A DNA stretch of 64,000 bases from an uncultured Candidatus Saccharibacteria bacterium (GCA_964490395.1 CAZBAS010000002.1:127291-191290), one strand, 5' to 3'; counted from the first letter of the stretch, positions 5,357 to 63,917 are shown. Numbers and translations: made by a program. Notes: generated by a model not told the origin, from the letters alone.

Positions 5357-5413
5357 CACCACCCCAGGTCTTAAAAACACTACCCCTTATTCGCGCGAAT
5401 AGTGACTGGGGTG
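5357..5413. repeat. Nested inverted repeat downstream of the tRNA. Outer arms CACCCCAGGTC/GACTGGGGTG enclose the perfect 14-bp palindrome TATTCGCGCGAATA (5388-5401).
   Basis: Read directly from the sequence. Confidence 0.7.
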
Positions 5414-5464
5414 CTTAGGGCTTCATGGTTATGTGTTACGCTATAGATAAGTAACAATATATAC

Positions 5465-5845
5465 ATGAACTCACATACAGAATTTTATCCAACAGTGCCT
5501 GTACAGGACTTAGAGCGGGCAAAAAAGTTTTACATGGATATGCTCGGGTTTAGTGTTATGGACGAGAGCGTACCCAGCATAGCCATGATGCAAAACGATA
5601 CGCATGGCAAGCTTATGCTGTTCCAGCGGCCACCAACAAAAGCAGACAACGCCATAATTGGTTTTGTGGTAGATATAGACCAAGCTGTAGATGAGCTCGC
5701 AGCCAAAGGCGTACACATGGAGCAGTACGACATGGGCGAAGGCATGAAAACTGACGAACGAGGCATATTGCACTACGGAAACACCGCAGCCGCATGGTTT
5801 AAAGATACCGAAGGCAACATTCTTTCCCTTCACGGTAAAATATAG
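5465..5845 (+). CDS. VOC/glyoxalase family protein.
   Basis: 126 aa with the glyoxalase/bleomycin-resistance fold pattern. Confidence 0.65.
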   Translation: MNSHTEFYPTVPVQDLERAKKFYMDMLGFSVMDESVPSIAMMQNDTHGKLMLFQRPPTKADNAIIGFVVDIDQAVDELAAKGVHMEQYDMGEGMKTDERGILHYGNTAAAWFKDTEGNILSLHGKI

Positions 5846-18117: not shown

Positions 18118-18798
18118 ATGAAAAAGCTGGCTACTGTATTACTCGTCATACTTATACTACTTGGCGCACTCACCAGTATTTTTGCATTGGGCGCAAGCGG
18201 TGACGAACACAACTGGTTCAATACAACGTGGAGACCTCGCTTTGCGCGCGTGGCGAGCCTACGGAGTCTATTCAATCTCCACGATGATGGCGATGCCAAA
18301 AGCGAATATCTGGGCAAGCAAAAACAATACATTGCCATTATAATAAAACCATATGTTGACCCGTGGTTTAGCGATGGTGTGTGGAAAGAGTTTAGCAAAA
18401 AAGTAACCGAAATTACGGGCAAACAAGTAGAGCTTCTCACAGATACAGATATACCCACGTCTAATGACGCACCTGTATACATATACCTTGAAAGCGTTAA
18501 CGAAGAAAATGCACTCACCCTAGGAAAAACATATAATGAGAATGGCATTATTTTGTACAAGCAGGGTTTGGAAAGCTTCAGTAACGGTACTCCGGAAACA
18601 AAAGAAGCCTACATTATGTCTACGCTCCTTCATGAGTTCGGCCATCAGCTAGGCCTAGTCCACAACGAAGAACCCGGCTGCCTCATGAACAGCCATGCCG
18701 AAACCGGCGGCAATGCCAAGCTCGTGACCAGCGAAGTGATAACAAACTTCTGCGCGGAGGAGATTGAACAAATTTCAAAAATCAAAAGTGAATTATGA
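18118..18798 (+). CDS. Secreted metzincin-type zinc metalloprotease.
   Basis: Signal peptide. HEFGHQLGLVH matches the HExxHxxGxxH zinc-binding consensus, with a downstream CLM Met-turn candidate. Confidence 0.6.
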   Translation: MKKLATVLLVILILLGALTSIFALGASGDEHNWFNTTWRPRFARVASLRSLFNLHDDGDAKSEYLGKQKQYIAIIIKPYVDPWFSDGVWKEFSKKVTEITGKQVELLTDTDIPTSNDAPVYIYLESVNEENALTLGKTYNENGIILYKQGLESFSNGTPETKEAYIMSTLLHEFGHQLGLVHNEEPGCLMNSHAETGGNAKLVTSEVITNFCAEEIEQISKIKSEL

Positions 18799-18880
18799 AG
18801 TAAGAATTATGAAGTATGTATTTAAGAACTCTTAAGGCATTTCTACTACGTAATTCATAATTCCTTATTCATAATTCCGC
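18788..18880. repeat. Word-palindrome, family 5 (GAATTATGAAG arms), overlapping the 3' end of the metzincin gene.
   Basis: GTGAATTATGAAGTAAGAATTATGAAGTATG ... CGTAATTCATAATTCCTTATTCATAATTCC. Confidence 0.7.
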
Positions 18881-27225: not shown

Positions 27226-27309
27226 GGTAATGTCTAATTTCTAATATTCAATTTCTAATGAGCCGGACTGTCTTCCATTAGACATTAGGAATTAGAAATT
27301 AGACATTTC
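27226..27309. repeat. Word-palindrome, family 2 (AATGTCTAATTTCTAAT ... CATTAGACATTAGGAATTAGAAATTAGACATTTC), copy 1.
   Basis: About 80-90% identical to the copies at 28686 and 30411. GCCGGAC-type loop. Confidence 0.8.
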
Positions 27310-28667: not shown

Positions 28668-28685
28668 AAGGTGAGGAAATGTCTA

Positions 28686-28776
28686 ATTTCTAATACCTAA
28701 TTCCTAATGGTCCGGACATTCTTATATCTTTCATTAGACATTAGAAATTAGATATTGGTCATTTCCTACATAGTAT
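28686..28776. repeat. Word-palindrome, family 2, copy 2 (loop CTAATGGTCCGGACATTCTT).
   Basis: About 90% identical to the copy at 30411-30500. Confidence 0.8.
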
Positions 28777-30410: not shown

Positions 30411-30500
30411 CAATGTCTAATTTCTAATATCTAATTCCTAATGGTCCGGACATTCTTTTGTCTTTCATTAGACATTAGGAATTAGAAATTGGACATTTCT
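30411..30500. repeat. Word-palindrome, family 2, copy 3.
   Basis: AATGTCTAATTTCTAATATCTAATTCCTAATGGTCCGGACATTCTTTTGTCTTTCATTAGACATTAGGAATTAGAAATTGGACATTTC. Confidence 0.8.
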
Positions 30501-57888: not shown

Positions 57889-57902
57889 AGAAATATAATA
57901 AA

Positions 57903-57991
57903 ATGCCTAATGTCTAATTCTTAATTTCTAATGCGAAGCCTAAAAACATTTGACTCTTGCATTAGAAATTGGATATTAGAAATTAGACATT
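57903..57991. repeat. Word-palindrome, family 2, copy 5.
   Basis: TGCCTAATGTCTAATTCTTAATTTCTAATG...CATTAGAAATTGGATATTAGAAATTAGACATTC. Confidence 0.75.
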
Positions 57992-57995
57992 CTTT

Positions 57996-58646
57996 TTAAA
58001 GCTCTTCCTCTTCGGGCAACAAGCCTGAAGATTCGGTCCGAGGCGCTGGTTCATCACCTTCATTGATAAGCTCCATGCTTGCGCCAGCCTCAGCATGCTC
58101 ACCTTTCTTGATAACGTTTTCAACGGCTGCCCAGGTCGCTTCTTTTCCTTCCGGAAGAATAATAGTTACTTCGTCTCCAGGCTCTGCTTTGAAATACGTA
58201 AGGGACGCAAGCAACACACGGTATGGCTTACCATCTGCCAGCACTCGGAAGTCTGAACGTTCGTCCTGCACCAAAATACCCAAGACTTTTTTCCGATCAA
58301 TAGGGCCAATTTGCTTATATATGAACGACCCATCGTCTGCAATGGTAAGTTTAAGCACGTCACCTTCAACAAGTTTGCTCTTAGAAGCATAGTTGGCAGG
58401 CACTGGATACTGTTTCCCGTCTGGGCCAATCATGTTTTGTCCATCGAACACACCTTCAATAACTTTACCGCCCCCAGTTACGGAAAGCATAGCTGCTTTG
58501 GTCGCTAGGTTTTCAGCTGAAGGAGCACGCAAAGAAACGCCAGCGCCGCCCATAACTTCCCGGAGGAGCTGTTTAGCAGACTGGAGGTTCTTTTCCGCAG
58601 ATTCAATCATCTGACTCAAAAGAGCCAAATTTTCTAACTTATCCAT
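57996..58646 (-). CDS. Hypothetical protein with an N-terminal coiled coil, two small repeated beta modules and an acidic tail.
   Basis: ORF preceded by the extended -10 TGATATACT (58688-58696, minus strand). Internal repeat GDVLKLTIADDGSFIY / GDEVTIILPEGKEATW. Confidence 0.45.
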   Translation of the reverse strand: MDKLENLALLSQMIESAEKNLQSAKQLLREVMGGAGVSLRAPSAENLATKAAMLSVTGGGKVIEGVFDGQNMIGPDGKQYPVPANYASKSKLVEGDVLKLTIADDGSFIYKQIGPIDRKKVLGILVQDERSDFRVLADGKPYRVLLASLTYFKAEPGDEVTIILPEGKEATWAAVENVIKKGEHAEAGASMELINEGDEPAPRTESSGLLPEEEEL

Positions 58647-58734
58647 ATCTTTTTGTTTATGTTTCTAATCTTATGAAACTTAAGAATAGTATATCATAGC
58701 CTCGCGCAATTGCAAACACAAAAGGATCAGAATC

Positions 58735-58815
58735 AAGAATTACGAATTATGAATTAAGTAAACGCCGTCCAACCCGTCGCCACTGTTAGGAGCATAATTC
58801 ATAATTCTTGATTCA
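58735..58815. repeat. Word-palindrome, family 5 (GAATCAAGAATTACGAATTATGAATTAAG ... CATAATTCATAATTCTTGATTCATAATTC).
   Basis: Inverted GAATTATGAAT-word arms. Confidence 0.75.
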
Positions 58816-58824
58816 TAATTCTTC

Positions 58825-61359
58825 CTACAATGTTCTTTCAATGGACGCAGATCCTGCAGCCATCATATCGGCCACCATGCTTGCCTCCATTACTTCGGCT
58901 TCTACTTCGGCACGGGGGCGACCGTATTTAAGGCGACTCAACTGCCGTATAGCTTCGGCTATTTCTTTTTGCCTGTCAGTTGGCTTTGGCAGTGCATAAG
59001 TTGCCATGTTAAACGGCTTACTTGCTGTGCCATTTATCATAAGTTTAATAAAGCCGTTATACCGCTCTACGTTTACCAAATCGAATTCGTTGAACGTTGG
59101 CGCCATTTCTTTTGCCATTGCCTCCGCGTCTTCCACACCAATGCGGAAGGTAACCATAGTACCTGCATTACCAAATACTGCATCGCGCAAGCTCTTTGAC
59201 CCTGCTCCTTGTGCTCCTGCACCTTGTTCTAATTGAGCCAAATACTGGTGCGCAATTATCAGATTCAATCGATACTTTCTCGCCTCTGAGAGAATAGACT
59301 CAAACGCATCGGTAATAAAGTTTTGGAACTCATCTACGTACAAGTAAAAATCTTTGCGCTCGCTTTCACGGATGTCTGCGCGTGATAGCGCTGCCATTTG
59401 GAGCTTGGAAACAATTATCAGACCAAGCAATTTTGCGTTCATCTCCCCTACCCGCCCTTTAGACAAGTTCACGAGTAGTATTTTACCTTCGTCCATTATT
59501 TGGCGAAAATTGAACGAGCTATGAGGCTGGCCTACTATGTTACGGATCATGCCGTTTTCCACAAACCTACCAACCTTCGACACCAAGTACCCAAGCATTT
59601 CGCTTTTATGGAAATCGCTCGTTTTAGCCATTTCTTTTTCCCAAAACGCACGTACCAGAGGATCTTTAAGTTTGGAAACTTTGTATTTCTGAAACTCCAT
59701 ATCGGTAAAAATACGCGGTATATCTACAAGCGTCCCAGGGTTCTCTTCGTCCGCCATAAGGGTAAGCATGGCGTTGCGCATATTGTGCTCAAACATAGGC
59801 CCAAGCATAGCAGGGTCTGTAACGAGCTTGTAAAATATGGAGATCATTTCTTGGACAGCGAAGTCTTTCTGCGCCTCGTCTGGAGCTTCCAGCATATTCA
59901 GTCCGAGCGGACGTTCTATATCTGCAGGTTCAAACAGCACCACATCCTCTGCCCGCTCTTTCGGTACATGCGGCAATATGTCTTCTATAAAATCACCGTG
60001 CGGATCGATAATGCACAAGCCTTCGCCAGCTTGTATATCTTGCACCGCCATATTCTTCATAATTTCCGTTTTTCCAACACCAGTACGTCCAATAATATAC
60101 GTATGGCGTCGCCTATCATCACGCGCCATGCGTATTTTAGTGTCGAAATTGCGATACTCGTTACGGCCGAGCAGCACCCCTTCCACCGGCAAGTTAATAG
60201 GTGGCGGAGCCTTTTTTGAAACAAGCCATTTAATATTTGGCGTTTCAAGAAAACTCCCTGGCAGGTGCCAAAGGCTAGTAAGTTCTTCAGTATTTACTAT
60301 CTGATCTTTAAAAAAGTTACTCCTATAGACTCGGAAGATAAAATCTTTTACTATGTCATTTTTGTCGCGAGACCGCGCTTTGAGCGCGTTAAAAGGAGGC
60401 ATGTTGAACTGGAGAAAAGAAGAAGTAATGCCAGACAAGTGCAAACGAGCATTTCCCGGTATGGTAGATGCCGCAACAATACGAATATTCGTCTTAAACC
60501 CCGGACGGCTCGCTTTTTCCTCAAGCCGCTTTACAATTTCTTGCTGCATGGGGGTAAGGCTAATAGGACTATCAAGCCCACTCAAATCTTTTTTATTTAC
60601 CCCTTCTTTACTTCCCCCTGTAACCGCGCTCGTAAGCCCTTTTGAAACCTCATGCATGAGCTTACTGAATACACCCTGGCCTACAGACTCAGGATTCTTT
60701 CCCTGTTGAATTTCAAGAGCGGTTCGCCGAGGCCCGTTTTGCCACGAGCTACCCGCAGGAAGAATAATATACTGTATTGCTGCGCCTTCATTGTCTTGCA
60801 GCTTGCTCATGGCGTTTGTAACTGCATTGAGCGGATCGGTTTCCATAGCCTTATAGGTCCGGAGTGGGTACATATACGACTTAGCAAGCTCAAGCTCTGT
60901 TGCCTGTACCTCCGCCCCTTCTGGAAATGGATTGTACATTTCAACCTCATCAATAAACGCATGAGGGTACTGAGCATGAATCTGCTTTTCAATAAGGTCG
61001 TGGAGTCGTTTTGGACAATTTATATAAAAGCTTATCTTCTTGTCTATGCAGGCAATTTCAAAACTTATGTAATCCTTACTCCCCAAAAAGCCACTCTCGT
61101 GTCCAACATCAGAAATAGCAGTAAATAGCTGCTCGCCTATGGAAATACTATTTTTACGGTCATCACTTGCCTGACCGCGCTGCTGATCTTCATTTTTACT
61201 CTCTTTGGGCATTTGCACTTCCAAGAATACCCACTCCAGGGTCCTCGGCGTAATAATGCGAGTGTTATATATATGGTGCTTTGCGTAGTACACGAGCACA
61301 ACAAAAAACCCTACTACAAGGAATGCGAGTACGAGCAACGTTATAGTGAATACATCCAT
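58825..61359 (-). CDS. Membrane-anchored type IV secretion coupling-protein-like ATPase (TraD/TrwB/VirD4 family P-loop NTPase), with an ~420-aa N-terminal domain of unknown function.
   Basis: N-terminal TM helix. Walker A IIGRTGVGKTE followed by the CIIDPHGDF block typical of TrwB/VirD4 AAD. Walker B LYVDEFQNF and the ...LNLIIAHQYLAQL motif. 844 aa. Confidence 0.55.
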   Translation of the reverse strand: MDVFTITLLVLAFLVVGFFVVLVYYAKHHIYNTRIITPRTLEWVFLEVQMPKESKNEDQQRGQASDDRKNSISIGEQLFTAISDVGHESGFLGSKDYISFEIACIDKKISFYINCPKRLHDLIEKQIHAQYPHAFIDEVEMYNPFPEGAEVQATELELAKSYMYPLRTYKAMETDPLNAVTNAMSKLQDNEGAAIQYIILPAGSSWQNGPRRTALEIQQGKNPESVGQGVFSKLMHEVSKGLTSAVTGGSKEGVNKKDLSGLDSPISLTPMQQEIVKRLEEKASRPGFKTNIRIVAASTIPGNARLHLSGITSSFLQFNMPPFNALKARSRDKNDIVKDFIFRVYRSNFFKDQIVNTEELTSLWHLPGSFLETPNIKWLVSKKAPPPINLPVEGVLLGRNEYRNFDTKIRMARDDRRRHTYIIGRTGVGKTEIMKNMAVQDIQAGEGLCIIDPHGDFIEDILPHVPKERAEDVVLFEPADIERPLGLNMLEAPDEAQKDFAVQEMISIFYKLVTDPAMLGPMFEHNMRNAMLTLMADEENPGTLVDIPRIFTDMEFQKYKVSKLKDPLVRAFWEKEMAKTSDFHKSEMLGYLVSKVGRFVENGMIRNIVGQPHSSFNFRQIMDEGKILLVNLSKGRVGEMNAKLLGLIIVSKLQMAALSRADIRESERKDFYLYVDEFQNFITDAFESILSEARKYRLNLIIAHQYLAQLEQGAGAQGAGSKSLRDAVFGNAGTMVTFRIGVEDAEAMAKEMAPTFNEFDLVNVERYNGFIKLMINGTASKPFNMATYALPKPTDRQKEIAEAIRQLSRLKYGRPRAEVEAEVMEASMVADMMAAGSASIERTL

Positions 61360-61393
61360 TGGTTTTTTGTTTTTCTATGTGCGAATTACTTCC

Positions 61394-61831
61394 TTACACT
61401 ATGCCACCGAGCCCGTGTTCTTTATGGGATTGTTCAACTAGTAAATCCACTTCTTCGTTCAATATTGCGGGCCTCACCGCTGACTTGGAATCGGCCACCA
61501 GCAACTCAAGTTTTTTTGCAGTGCTGAGCTTTGCTGCGTCTTCCAGACTAACTCCTGTAATTTTTGCATAGAGCTCATCCACCTGCGCGGGGGTAGGTGG
61601 TGCAATCACTGCCCCAGCAGGGTCTGAAGCTGCCGCTGCTACTACCCCAAGCGCTGAAGCCTTATGTATTACATCACCAAGCCGCTCAGCCTCCGCCTTT
61701 GACTCAGCAGCTATATATTTGGTCTCCGCGCTTACGTCGGCTTTCTTTTCAACTTGCTCTACAACATCTGGTACAACTTCGGGTGCCGATTCAGGGCTAT
61801 TTATTTTAGGAATTTCTGGTGCAGTTGCCAT
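61394..61831 (-). CDS. Acidic hypothetical protein (145 aa), probably co-transcribed with the downstream ATPase gene (34-bp gap).
   Basis: ORF preceded by the extended -10 TGTGGTATAAT. Confidence 0.4.
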   Translation of the reverse strand: MATAPEIPKINSPESAPEVVPDVVEQVEKKADVSAETKYIAAESKAEAERLGDVIHKASALGVVAAAASDPAGAVIAPPTPAQVDELYAKITGVSLEDAAKLSTAKKLELLVADSKSAVRPAILNEEVDLLVEQSHKEHGLGGIV

Positions 61832-61876: not shown

Positions 61877-61888
61877 AATTATACCACA
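61877..61888 (-). promoter_or_regulatory. Extended -10 promoter element TGTGGTATAATT (minus strand).
   Basis: Perfect TGnTATAAT-class motif 46 bp upstream of the 61831 start. Confidence 0.45.
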
Positions 61889-61904: not shown

Positions 61905-61933
61905 TAAAAAAACACGAGGCACTGCCTCGTGTT
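61905..61933 (-). terminator. Rho-independent terminator downstream of secY (hairpin ACACGAGGCAGTGCCTCGTGT + T8 on the minus strand).
   Basis: Stem 61913-61933 followed by TTTTTTTT (61905-61912) on the minus strand. Confidence 0.75.
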
Positions 61934-61962
61934 TGGTATACAACTCCACCGTTTACTACAAC

Positions 61963-63243
61963 CTATACTTCGTCGTAGTCATGAACGCTGAGCTGCGCTT
62001 CAATTTGTTTTATAGTCTCTATTACCACTGCAACAACAATGAGGATGCTAGTACCACCAAGAGTTAACGCCTGGGTTCCAGTAAATTTCTGAAGCAAGAA
62101 TGGCATGATGGCTATGAGACCCAAGAACACAGCGCCGGGTAACGTAATGCGGTTCAGTACTTTGTACAAATAGTCTGCTGTTTGCTTGCCTGGACGGAGC
62201 CCTGGAACAAAGCCACCGTTTTTCTGTACATTTTCAGCCACTTCGTCTGGATTAAACACCACCGCGGTGTAGAAATAGGTAAACACCACAACCAATACAA
62301 AGTAGGCAATACCGTAATACATGTTCTGAGAATTAAACAGGCTTATTACTTTTCCTGCATAATTGGCAACCACAGCAGATTTCGCATTTACAAAGAATTG
62401 AGCAATGAGCGCCGGGAACAAAAGCATGGAAATGGCAAAGATGATTGGAATAACCCCAGCCTGGTTTAACCGTAAAGGCAAGTGAGTATTTACACCACCA
62501 TATTGCTTATCGCCCCTTACGCGCCGAGCGTAGGAAATAGGTATATTTCGCTGGGCTTCGGTAATGAGAATAATACCAGCTACCACCAAAAGCCCTATAG
62601 CTATGTACCCCAAGAACACGGGCAAACGGGAAGGATCGTAGAAACTTATAACCGACTTCAAGCTAAATGGTAACCGGGCAATAATACCGGCAAATATTAC
62701 CAAACTTACACCGTTACCAATGCCGTACTCAGTAATAATTTCCCCTATCCACATAATTATCATAGTTCCTGCAGTCACGGAAAGTAGGGTCAAGAACCAC
62801 TGATACGACGTAAAGCTTGGCAATAATTGGCCACCAGCCTGGCTTTGCAAAAGGCGAATAGTACCAAAACCTTGCAAGAGCGCGAGCGGAATAGTCAGGT
62901 AGCGCATGTACATGTTCATCTTGAGCCTACCCTGCTCCCCGCCTTCTTTTTGCATTTCACCAAGGGATGGAATAATCACGGCCAGTAACTGAATTATAAT
63001 GGACGCCGTAATATAAGGACCAACACCGAGCATGGCCAAAGAGAAATTGGTAAGACCACCACCAGAGAAAAGATCGAGCAGGCCTAGAAACTGGTTTTGA
63101 TCGAGCGCGCTCTTAAGAGCAGAAGCATCTACCCCAGGAATAGGTATGTGCGCAAAGACACGTGTAACTAAAAGCAGGCCGATAATCCAGAGGATCCGTA
63201 CCCGCAAATCTTTCGTTTTCCAAATGAGAGAAATTTTATTCAT
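61963..63243 (-). CDS. secY: Preprotein translocase subunit SecY.
   Basis: 10-TM SecY with conserved blocks (GIGNGVSLVIF, plug/hinge regions). 426 aa. Confidence 0.9.
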   Translation of the reverse strand: MNKISLIWKTKDLRVRILWIIGLLLVTRVFAHIPIPGVDASALKSALDQNQFLGLLDLFSGGGLTNFSLAMLGVGPYITASIIIQLLAVIIPSLGEMQKEGGEQGRLKMNMYMRYLTIPLALLQGFGTIRLLQSQAGGQLLPSFTSYQWFLTLLSVTAGTMIIMWIGEIITEYGIGNGVSLVIFAGIIARLPFSLKSVISFYDPSRLPVFLGYIAIGLLVVAGIILITEAQRNIPISYARRVRGDKQYGGVNTHLPLRLNQAGVIPIIFAISMLLFPALIAQFFVNAKSAVVANYAGKVISLFNSQNMYYGIAYFVLVVVFTYFYTAVVFNPDEVAENVQKNGGFVPGLRPGKQTADYLYKVLNRITLPGAVFLGLIAIMPFLLQKFTGTQALTLGGTSILIVVAVVIETIKQIEAQLSVHDYDEV

Positions 63244-63826: not shown

Positions 63827-63915
63827 TGAAATTTCTAATTTCTAATTTCTAATTTCTAATGAGGTATCTAATCATGAGCTTACTAATTAGATATTAGAAA
63901 TTAGATATTGGGCAT
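63827..63915. repeat. Word-palindrome, family 2, copy 6 (four tandem TTTCTAAT words ... TTAGATATTAGAAATTAGATATTGGGCATTC).
   Basis: Inverted TCTAAT-word arms between rpsE and rplO. Confidence 0.75.
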
Positions 63916-63917
63916 TC

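Follow-up and report, generated by a model that had tools for sequence, protein, structure and literature searches.

What does an ATPase of the coupling-protein type do on a stretch of chromosome in which no gene of a type IV secretion system (T4SS) was found, and what is the large domain that precedes its motor? This question is raised by a gene for an 844-residue protein, which lies downstream of secY in a stretch of 64,000 nucleotides from an uncultured Candidatus Saccharibacteria bacterium (GCA_964490395.1 CAZBAS010000002.1:127291-191290). The whole stretch is referred to as the window hereafter, and coordinates given without a locus name are positions in it. The gene, secY and the two small open reading frames (ORFs) that flank the ATPase gene, one of 145 residues upstream and one of 216 residues downstream, all lie on the minus strand. 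A first-pass annotation of the sequence had described the three genes as a possible lineage-specific export or DNA-translocation module inserted next to secY. The answer toward which we lean, with moderate confidence, is that the protein is a membrane-anchored ring translocase, in which a domain called DUF8128 is joined to a coupling-type motor, and that it works with an adaptor or regulator partner and is not linked to a T4SS.

Architecture of the 844-residue ATPase

The protein is composed of the following parts.

58825..61359, minus strand: the 844-residue membrane-anchored ATPase, DUF8128 plus coupling-protein-type motor (ORF call, Pfam, models)
61279..61353, minus strand: N-terminal transmembrane anchor, residues 3-27 (sole hydrophobic segment in the hydropathy scan)
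60265..61236, minus strand: DUF8128 (PF26449) alpha/beta domain, residues ~42-365, ~320-360 residues long (homolog annotation, AF2 model)
60166..60267, minus strand: highly conserved proline-rich linker HLP..ETPNIKWL.SKKAPPP.NLP.EG, residues 365-398
58975..60177, minus strand: motor of the FtsK/HerA superfamily, TrwB/VirD4 type, residues ~395-795 (Pfam, PDB profile, hhalign, Foldseek)
60067-60090, minus strand: Walker A (coordinates verified)
59989-60012, minus strand: IIDPHGDF (coordinates verified)
59491-59877, minus strand: predicted all-alpha insert, helices 495-623 between Walker A and Walker B
59317-59343, minus strand: Walker B, DEFQNF (coordinates verified)
59245-59253, minus strand: AHQ (coordinates verified)

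The three ORFs, the single transmembrane helix and the four motifs that had been read from the sequence (GRTGVGKT at residue 424, IIDPHGDF at 450, DEFQNF at 676 and AHQ at 703) were all confirmed at their coordinates. In the predicted model, a helix spans residues 3-41. A cluster of K, H and R residues follows the anchor, and the remainder of the protein is therefore predicted to be cytoplasmic according to the positive-inside rule. Within the linker, H365, P367 and G398 are invariant and W378, P387, P391 and G394 are nearly invariant among 27-30 diverse members of the family. The Walker A and Walker B motifs, Q705 and R694/K695 are likewise invariant among 30 diverse members, which suggests that the enzyme should be active.

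The motor is nearest to the coupling proteins TrwB/VirD4 by both sequence and fold. In Pfam, residues ~400-745 matched TrwB_AAD_bind (2e-10), T4SS-DNA_transf (2e-7) and TraG-D_C (1e-5), all above the cut-offs, and two further matches, DUF87 (3e-6) and HerA_C (0.07), were local to the P-loop. The NCBIfam matches, to TraD, VirD4, CedD and HerA, were all sub-threshold and located near the P-loop. A profile of the family searched against the solved structures (PDB) found TrwB at 6e-7, and DotL was also found. Profile alignment (hhalign) of the family with TrwB gave a probability of 96% (E = 2e-9) over 272 columns, which begin at Walker A, include the helical insert and end at Walker B. The corresponding probability was 7.6% for TrwK/VirB4 as a single sequence and 87% (E = 4e-6) for a nine-member profile of the VirB4 C-terminal domain. 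The Foldseek match to TrwB has a template-modelling score (TMt) of 0.65 and a root-mean-square deviation of 5.2 Å over 414 columns. When the full-length model was used, TrwB, Cagbeta and DotL matched its C-terminal ~415-530 columns only, and HerA ranked under VirB4 and TrwB in the list. The earlier assignment of the C-terminal half to the coupling-protein-type ATPases is thus upheld, and profiles and structure favour VirB4/VirD4 over a placement in FtsK/HerA. Among the Pfam families that had been proposed for the search, TrwB_AAD_bind, T4SS-DNA_transf and DUF87 were matched and AAA_10 was not. The Pfam scan of the protein also contained no CagE_TrbE_VirB, and at E ≤ 0.1 it contained neither FtsK_SpoIIIE nor the gamma domain.

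The N-terminal ~420 residues had been thought to match nothing recognisable. This part proved to be DUF8128: PF26449 is annotated on every homolog in a large protein database, up to 96% identical (the membership was read from this precomputed annotation; the local Pfam copy lacks the PF26449 model). A search with the N-terminal domain alone gave 2,183 clusters at 50% identity. The layout of these proteins is uniform: DUF8128 is always N-terminal and the motor C-terminal, in proteins of ~800-870 residues, some of which have longer C-termini. The literature search found no mention of PF26449 or DUF8128.

The structure of this domain was predicted with AlphaFold (AF2) for residues 1-400 from an alignment of 27 sequences, down to 26% identity. 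The model has a predicted local distance difference test score (pLDDT) of 85 and a predicted template-modelling score (pTM) of 0.80. When it was compared with the PDB by Foldseek, 13 of the 13 matches at E < 1e-3 were TrwK/VirB4 of the R388 T4SS (E 1.4e-6 to 8e-5; TMq 0.38-0.42), and the subsequent matches were unrelated. The full-length model (pLDDT 84) aligned with TrwK over 870-958 columns across both halves (E = 3e-15). In addition, the GenBank annotators of phage 0105phi7-2 recorded an HHpred match of its homolog to TrwK (7O43), which we count as independent support. The N-terminal domain is accordingly described here as having a predicted fold like that of the VirB4 N-terminal domain (NTD), and the full-length alignment to TrwK, taken with the TrwB-like motor, suggests a VirB4 architecture that carries a VirD4-like motor. 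The departure from classical VirD4 that had been noticed in the sequence is real: one transmembrane helix is followed by a folded domain of ~360 residues. The family had been catalogued but not characterised, and the novelty lies in the joining of a predicted VirB4-like N-terminal domain to a VirD4-like motor and in the phage relatives described below.

Relatives in phages and viruses

The protein is not specific to one lineage, as had been proposed, since Bacillus and Geobacillus phages carry relatives of it. The PHROGs family phrog_5156 (unknown function) matches residues 86-830 with E = 1e-94, and tblastn against the GenBank phages gave 40 records. The near-full-length matches, about residues 97-800, are phage G gp156, D6E ORF23, TP-84 gp48, CP-51 and 0105phi7-2 gp32. 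For gp156 of Bacillus phage G, the identity is 25% (2e-43); the SPO1-like phages match the ATPase part only. The N-terminal domain itself was also recovered: its hidden Markov model (HMM) found TP-84 gp48 and D6E ORF23 at ~1e-25, and its structural model found, in BFVD, Bacillus phage G Gp156 (3e-23) as well as a viral protein named 'component of type IV transporter system'. The homologs of the temperate phages are located in the early/lysogeny region, near ParA/RepA partition genes and the integrase. A literature search on phage 0105phi7-2 found nothing.

Another population of relatives occurs on the IMG/VR contigs (L174-L185, e.g., L174 9953-11251). These proteins, of ~360-680 residues, consist of the ATPase only and have neither a transmembrane helix nor DUF8128, and their sequences strongly resemble the motor half, with about 41% identity and HMM E-values as low as 1e-165. 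In view of these ATPase-only relatives, DUF8128 seems to have been added to a wider clade of motors.

The phage homolog itself is devoid of a transmembrane helix, and the small ORFs abutting it upstream encode membrane proteins. They occupy the position of virB3:

L186 5495-5875: small membrane ORF, TP-84 gp47
L188 4928-5648: small membrane ORFs, 0105phi7-2 gp30/gp31
L187 ~5372-5800: small membrane ORF of D6E

The D6E ORF is unannotated in its record and resembles TP-84 gp47. The arrangement matches that of the genuine virB4 loci, in which virB3 was directly upstream or fused in all eight loci fetched (8/8).

Such positions bear on one explanation in particular, namely, that the protein is a divergent assembly or energising ATPase of the VirB4 type whose VirB3-like anchor is fused to it, being the remnant or core of a minimal, unrecognised envelope-spanning apparatus. 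The small membrane ORFs before the phage homologs and the arrangement of the genuine virB4 loci speak for it, as do the collinearity of the full-length model with TrwK/VirB4, the restriction of the matches of the N-terminal model to VirB4, and the 87% probability obtained with the VirB4 C-terminal domain. However, in comparisons with single sequences the motor is closer to TrwB (96%) than to VirB4 (8%), the AAA_10 and CagE_TrbE_VirB families are unmatched, the N-terminal domain has no similarity at the sequence level, and VirB6, VirB8 or pilin-like neighbours did not turn up in the window. We consider this explanation improbable.

Genomic setting and neighbouring genes

On the minus strand, the gene order is L15 (63378-63818), secY (61963-63243), the 145-residue ORF, the ATPase gene, the 216-residue ORF, a GtrA-like gene, dnaX and htrA; the GtrA and SecY identities are from Pfam. 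Two sets of loci were compared with it. One consists of the 80 closest genomic loci (59-95% identity), which are labelled Doudnabacteria, Patescibacteria or generically 'Saccharibacteria', and the other consists of 80 metagenomic loci with 39-53% identity; they are referred to as the close and distant sets. In the close set, secY is upstream in 58 of the 80 loci, and the downstream side has the 216-residue gene in 50/80, GtrA in 45/80 and dnaX in 39/80. In the distant set, secY is found nearby in none (0/80) and dnaX in about 12/80. In the Saccharibacteria and Nomurabacteria members, the ATPase gene comes after dprA, topA and a gene for a protein with Sigma70_r4 and HARE-HTH domains; this gene encodes ~345 residues and lies directly upstream of the ATPase gene (L162 6917-7954 and L165 6740-7786). 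The DUF8128 ATPase family thus spans Doudnabacteria, Saccharibacteria and Nomurabacteria. A 59%-identical homolog was also found on a 2.8-kb contig (L079) that is labelled 'Candidatus Binatia bacterium' and is probably a mis-binned Patescibacteria fragment.

Since the synteny is kept in the close clade and the neighbours elsewhere are housekeeping genes, the ATPase gene is a vertically inherited gene in a core context, and it is neither an insertion, as the first-pass annotation had it, nor part of a conjugative element. The same annotation held that the trio occupies the site where adk and map normally follow secY. In this clade, however, adk/map are nowhere found after secY, and a displacement of these genes was rejected, because the corresponding stretch in sister genomes is variable and holds genes for CYTH, zincin-like, HAD hydrolase, dCTP deaminase and TIG-domain proteins:

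L053 3610-5398: variable stretch after secY, sister genome
L036 3140-5035: variable stretch after secY, sister genome
L044 2798-3893: variable stretch after secY, sister genome
L016 4290-5464: variable stretch after secY, sister genome

The neighbourhood brings in the explanation that the protein is an FtsK-like DNA pump for segregation of the chromosome or a replicon or for dimer resolution. Genes of DNA metabolism do lie nearby, namely, dnaX in several groups, dprA-topA in Saccharibacteria and Nomurabacteria, and a XerC/D-like recombinase in one clade, and the partition genes and integrase beside the phage homologs fit the same picture. In 14 loci (L108-L152), the tyrosine recombinase gene lies on the opposite strand, one to five positions downstream of the ATPase, and in a fifteenth (L149) it lies 10 genes upstream; the link is limited to one group of 55% identity, and it was rejected as a general clue. 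The remaining neighbours are generic housekeeping genes that would be syntenic regardless, neither FtsK_SpoIIIE nor the gamma domain is matched, and the probable ortholog discussed below is non-essential, so that a pump of this kind is quite improbable.

As for the T4SS, a phmmer search with the full R388 set (NC_028464) over the window proteins gave only TrwB against the 844-residue protein, and Pfam identified no T4SS component among the large unassigned ORFs of the window. Neither a T4SS gene nor a relaxase turned up in the window or beside the ATPase gene in about 165 related loci. A survey of 2,918 Patescibacteria genomes counted 5,713 homologues of VirD4-type coupling proteins (T4CPs), of which 148 are near virB4; T4CP genes are sometimes far from virB4, and exaptation of T4CP homologues cannot be ruled out according to the same study (Quinonero-Coronel et al., PMC12102498).

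In Southlakia epibionticum, an essential T4SS has been described without a recognisable coupling protein (Wang et al., PMC10633639). The supplement of that study lists two ATPases of interest. SEML1_0293, with TrwB_AAD_bind from residue 402, stands in the context of topA, Sigma70_r4/HARE-HTH, the ATPase and Cas9, and is non-essential at every time point; SEML1_0294, at the Sigma70_r4/HARE-HTH position and annotated RpoS, is essential (PMC10633639 supplement). The other, SEML1_0142, is a T4CP-like ATPase of 1019 residues, whose P-loop starts from about residue 381 and which is essential in transposon sequencing (Tn-seq), as is SEML1_0141; a 139-residue ORF is located 12 bp upstream of SEML1_0142 (PMC10633639 supplement). 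Judging from the NCBI name, the Pfam pattern and the Saccharibacteria synteny, SEML1_0293 is the likely counterpart of the DUF8128 family.

These data can be set against the explanation that the protein is the canonical VirD4/T4CP of the Patescibacteria T4SS, encoded apart from virB4 and recruiting substrates for host interaction. It would account for a motor nearest to TrwB, Cagbeta and DotL, and the occasional remoteness of T4CP genes from virB4 (PMC12102498) is compatible with it. It is disfavoured because of the architecture (one transmembrane helix and a 360-residue VirB4-like domain, not two helices and a short N-terminus), the absent linkage (no T4SS genes in the window or the related loci, and 148/5,713 homologues near virB4) and the dispensability of the probable Southlakia ortholog in an organism whose T4SS is essential. 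The description of that T4SS without a recognisable coupling protein and the homologs in phages that have no T4SS point the same way, and we judge the explanation to be unlikely. The earlier suggestion of a link to the episymbiotic T4SS is weakened by the same facts, and the ATPase is more likely to be an accessory translocase than an obligatory T4SS subunit.

The remaining explanation is an anti-phage defence component, or mobile-element cargo, with an ATPase of the HerA/MADS type. PADLOC reported mad8, a component of the MADS system, at 59200-60120 (9e-14; residues 416-716), weak HerA matches exist, and phages and IMG/VR contigs carry relatives. The PADLOC matches are restricted to the P-loop domain, for which reason the defence reading was rejected, and no partner defence genes or other MADS genes were seen. 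A base composition that is even over the entire window, core-gene synteny across about 80 genomes and presence across Patescibacteria classes also speak against this explanation, which can be given hardly any credence.

The features around the ATPase gene are as follows.

61910..61934, minus strand: intrinsic terminator closing the secY (ribosomal-protein) operon and marking the upstream unit boundary; 11-pair stem with 6 GC, then a T-run
61878..61886, minus strand: extended -10 element TGGTATAAT (TGnTATAAT), likely promoter of the operon of the 145-residue ORF and the ATPase gene (direct sequence reading)
61394..61831, minus strand: 145-residue acidic soluble protein, isoelectric point (pI) 4.7; ORF co-oriented with the ATPase gene and 34 nt upstream of it
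58729..58822, unstranded: AT-rich inverted repeat (arms of 28 nt, spacer of 38 nt), immediately 3' of the ATPase stop codon
58688..58716, minus strand: promoter-like site TTGCAA-16-TATACT with an upstream TG, for the 216-residue gene (promoter scan)
57996..58646, minus strand: 216-residue conserved Patescibacteria protein with an N-terminal helix, two related beta modules and an acidic tail (homolog search)

The layout of these elements suggests that the 145-residue gene and the ATPase gene form an operon under their own promoter, based on the secY terminator, the extended -10 element and the gap of 34 nt between the stop codon of the former and the start of the latter. The acidity of the 145-residue protein, the gap and the extended -10 element had all been noted before and were confirmed. 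A scan for two-hexamer promoters omitted TGGTATAAT because its -35 element is poor. The operon probably ends at the inverted repeat at 58729-58822.

The 145-residue protein has no transmembrane segment and gave no meaningful family match in Pfam, NCBIfam, PHROG or PADLOC. Its single detectable homolog is in the nearest genome (L001), with 58-60% identity. In this comparison, the proportions of nonsynonymous and synonymous differences are 0.27 (pN) and 0.73 (pS), and the nonsynonymous rate (dN) is roughly tenfold higher than in the neighbours. As pN is well below pS, the ORF is a real, fast-evolving coding gene under purifying selection. An ORF on the same strand, of ~110-156 residues (81 in one case), ends shortly before the ATPase gene in every close locus, and a same-strand gene for 100-210 residues lies at -20 to +50 nt of the ATPase gene in most distant loci, often overlapping its start. 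The products are usually acidic and soluble, with a TM-like segment in 4 of 111, and the possibility that the upstream protein is VirB3-like was rejected on this count. They fall into many sequence clusters, among which no mutual homology was detected by sequence or profile comparison; because the clades could not be united, the claim of homology was dropped and conservation of position only was retained. The 145-residue protein is regarded as a candidate adaptor or regulator of the ATPase, by analogy with the small partners of coupling proteins.

The 216-residue protein belongs to a very large Patescibacteria family (at least 8000 homologs) with an invariant NYASKS..GD motif, for which no Pfam model was found and which has no relative among the solved structures (PDB). 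Sub-threshold MazE_antitoxin matches (SpoVT/AbrB-like) occur in 15 of 24 members. The internal beta repeats that had been noticed in this protein can be described as two modules, whose duplication is weakly supported (hhalign E = 6e-4; reversed control 0.03). In the distant loci, the family occurs downstream of the ATPase in 10/80, at +1 in eight and at +3 in two. GtrA and dnaX often follow the gene, whose linkage to dnaX is no weaker than its linkage to the ATPase gene. Its synteny with the latter is partial, and its own promoter-like site and the intervening hairpin indicate that it would be transcribed separately. Of the two dedicated partners that had been proposed, therefore, the upstream gene is retained by position and operon layout, though a homolog of the 145-residue protein itself occurs in the nearest genome only, and the downstream one is unproven. 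The conservation of the neighbourhood is divided in the same manner: the small upstream gene is constant by position, and the 216-residue neighbour is partial (50/80 close, 10/80 distant).

The palindrome behind the ATPase gene is present, as had been reported, but it is not specific to the locus, because its families recur in intergenic regions across the window. The long AT-rich intergenic inverted repeats form at least two sequence families, AATGTCTAATTTCTAAT... and GAATTATGAA..., and occur at 57897-57996, 58729-58822, 27229-27307, 28678-28756, 30412-30497, 18790-18877 and 63830-63916. Throughout the window they stand at gene ends, and they resemble repetitive extragenic palindromic (REP)-type or terminator elements.

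Proposed function and comparison with known systems

In the translocase reading that we favour, the ATPase would assemble, like its relatives, as a membrane-anchored ring facing the cytoplasm, and the ring would be powered by ATP in threading or handing over a polymer, either DNA or unfolded protein, at the cytoplasmic membrane. The docking role that VirB3 and the VirB4 NTD have in type IV systems may fall to the VirB4-like domain and the fused anchor. The upstream protein may work as an adaptor or regulator, as in the pairs CagZ-Cagbeta, IcmS/W-DotL and TraM-TraD. The DNA-metabolism neighbours and the partition context in phages make us lean slightly to DNA as the substrate.

Several points weigh against this reading. 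The likeness to the VirB4 NTD comes from predicted structure only, with modest template-modelling scores (0.38-0.42), and hhalign comparison of the N-terminal domain with a nine-sequence alignment of the VirB4 NTD was not significant (E = 0.19; reversed control 0.065). The upstream proteins are not demonstrably homologous between clades, and in Saccharibacteria the -1 gene is instead the one for the 345-residue Sigma70_r4/HARE-HTH protein. Also, SEML1_0293 was chosen over SEML1_0142 as the ortholog by name, Pfam pattern and synteny and not by sequence, and it is the essential paralog SEML1_0142 that does have a small upstream ORF.

A more far-reaching proposal is that the DUF8128 ATPases form a third, unrecognised branch of the VirB4/VirD4 superfamily that has retained an N-terminal domain of the VirB4 type in front of a VirD4-like motor, and that the protein is a stand-alone membrane translocase of Patescibacteria that is independent of the T4SS and has cousins in temperate phages of Bacillus and Geobacillus. 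We hold this to be possible and, at present, doubtful. If it were true, the translocase might serve, for example, nucleic-acid exchange or export of the fast-evolving acidic partner. The family is a candidate intermediate in the evolution of the two T4SS ATPases. The published counts of Patescibacteria 'T4CP homologues' need to be reread, as at least the DUF8128 family is indicated not to be a canonical coupling protein. Patescibacteria are dependent on host-derived nucleotides and other building blocks, for the import of which a conserved membrane translocase is a concrete candidate. The probable ortholog SEML1_0293, being dispensable, should be deletable in a genetically tractable species, and the homologs of Bacillus and Geobacillus phages offer a second experimental route.

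Among the known systems, FtsK/SpoIIIE and HerA share the ATPase superfamily with the 844-residue protein, as seen in the weak DUF87/HerA matches at the P-loop. It differs from FtsK/SpoIIIE in lacking the FtsK_SpoIIIE and gamma domains and in having a single transmembrane helix instead of a multi-helix membrane domain. Unlike HerA, it has no HAS-barrel and no NurA neighbour, and its best matches are consistently VirB4/VirD4. The phage proteins of phrog_5156 share the DUF8128-like N-terminal domain, the ATPase and the small ORFs abutting upstream; they differ in being 20-25% identical, in having no transmembrane helix of their own, in the membrane nature of the upstream ORFs and in the temperate-phage setting. 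Of the Southlakia proteins, SEML1_0293 has the NCBI name, the start of TrwB_AAD_bind (residue 402) and the topA-Sigma70_r4/HARE-HTH-ATPase synteny of the Saccharibacteria DUF8128 members, and SEML1_0142 resembles the ATPase in the start of its P-loop (about residue 381) and in the 139-residue ORF 12 bp upstream.

With the coupling proteins VirD4, TrwB, TraD, Cagbeta and DotL, the protein shares a motor that has Walker A and B, an all-alpha insert and a TraG-D_C region. Some T4CPs are encoded next to a small acidic partner (CagZ, IcmS/W, TraM), to which the upstream protein can be compared by analogy only. The differences are that the N-terminus consists of one transmembrane helix and the ~360-residue DUF8128 instead of two helices within ~70-100 residues, that the gene is linked to neither a relaxase nor a T4SS in the window and about 165 related loci, and that the probable Southlakia ortholog is dispensable though the T4SS of that organism is essential.

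VirB4/TrwK differs from the protein in that the two show no similarity between their N-terminal domains at the sequence level, that the motor sequence is nearer to VirD4, and that the window has no virB2, B3, B6 or B8 neighbours, the context being chromosomal housekeeping genes and not an operon of mating pair formation (Mpf). The transmembrane helix of the 844-residue protein resembles a VirB3 fusion, yet the product of the -1 gene is soluble and no Mpf genes are nearby. In general plan, the two agree. Each has ~800 residues divided into two halves, of which the first is an alpha/beta domain and the second a RecA-like ATPase that contains a helical insert. Both halves are covered when the predicted full-length model is aligned with VirB4, and the significant PDB matches of the N-terminal model are to VirB4 only. 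Both also depend on a membrane anchor at the N-terminus, VirB4 on VirB3, which is sometimes fused to it, and the 844-residue protein presumably on its own fused helix.

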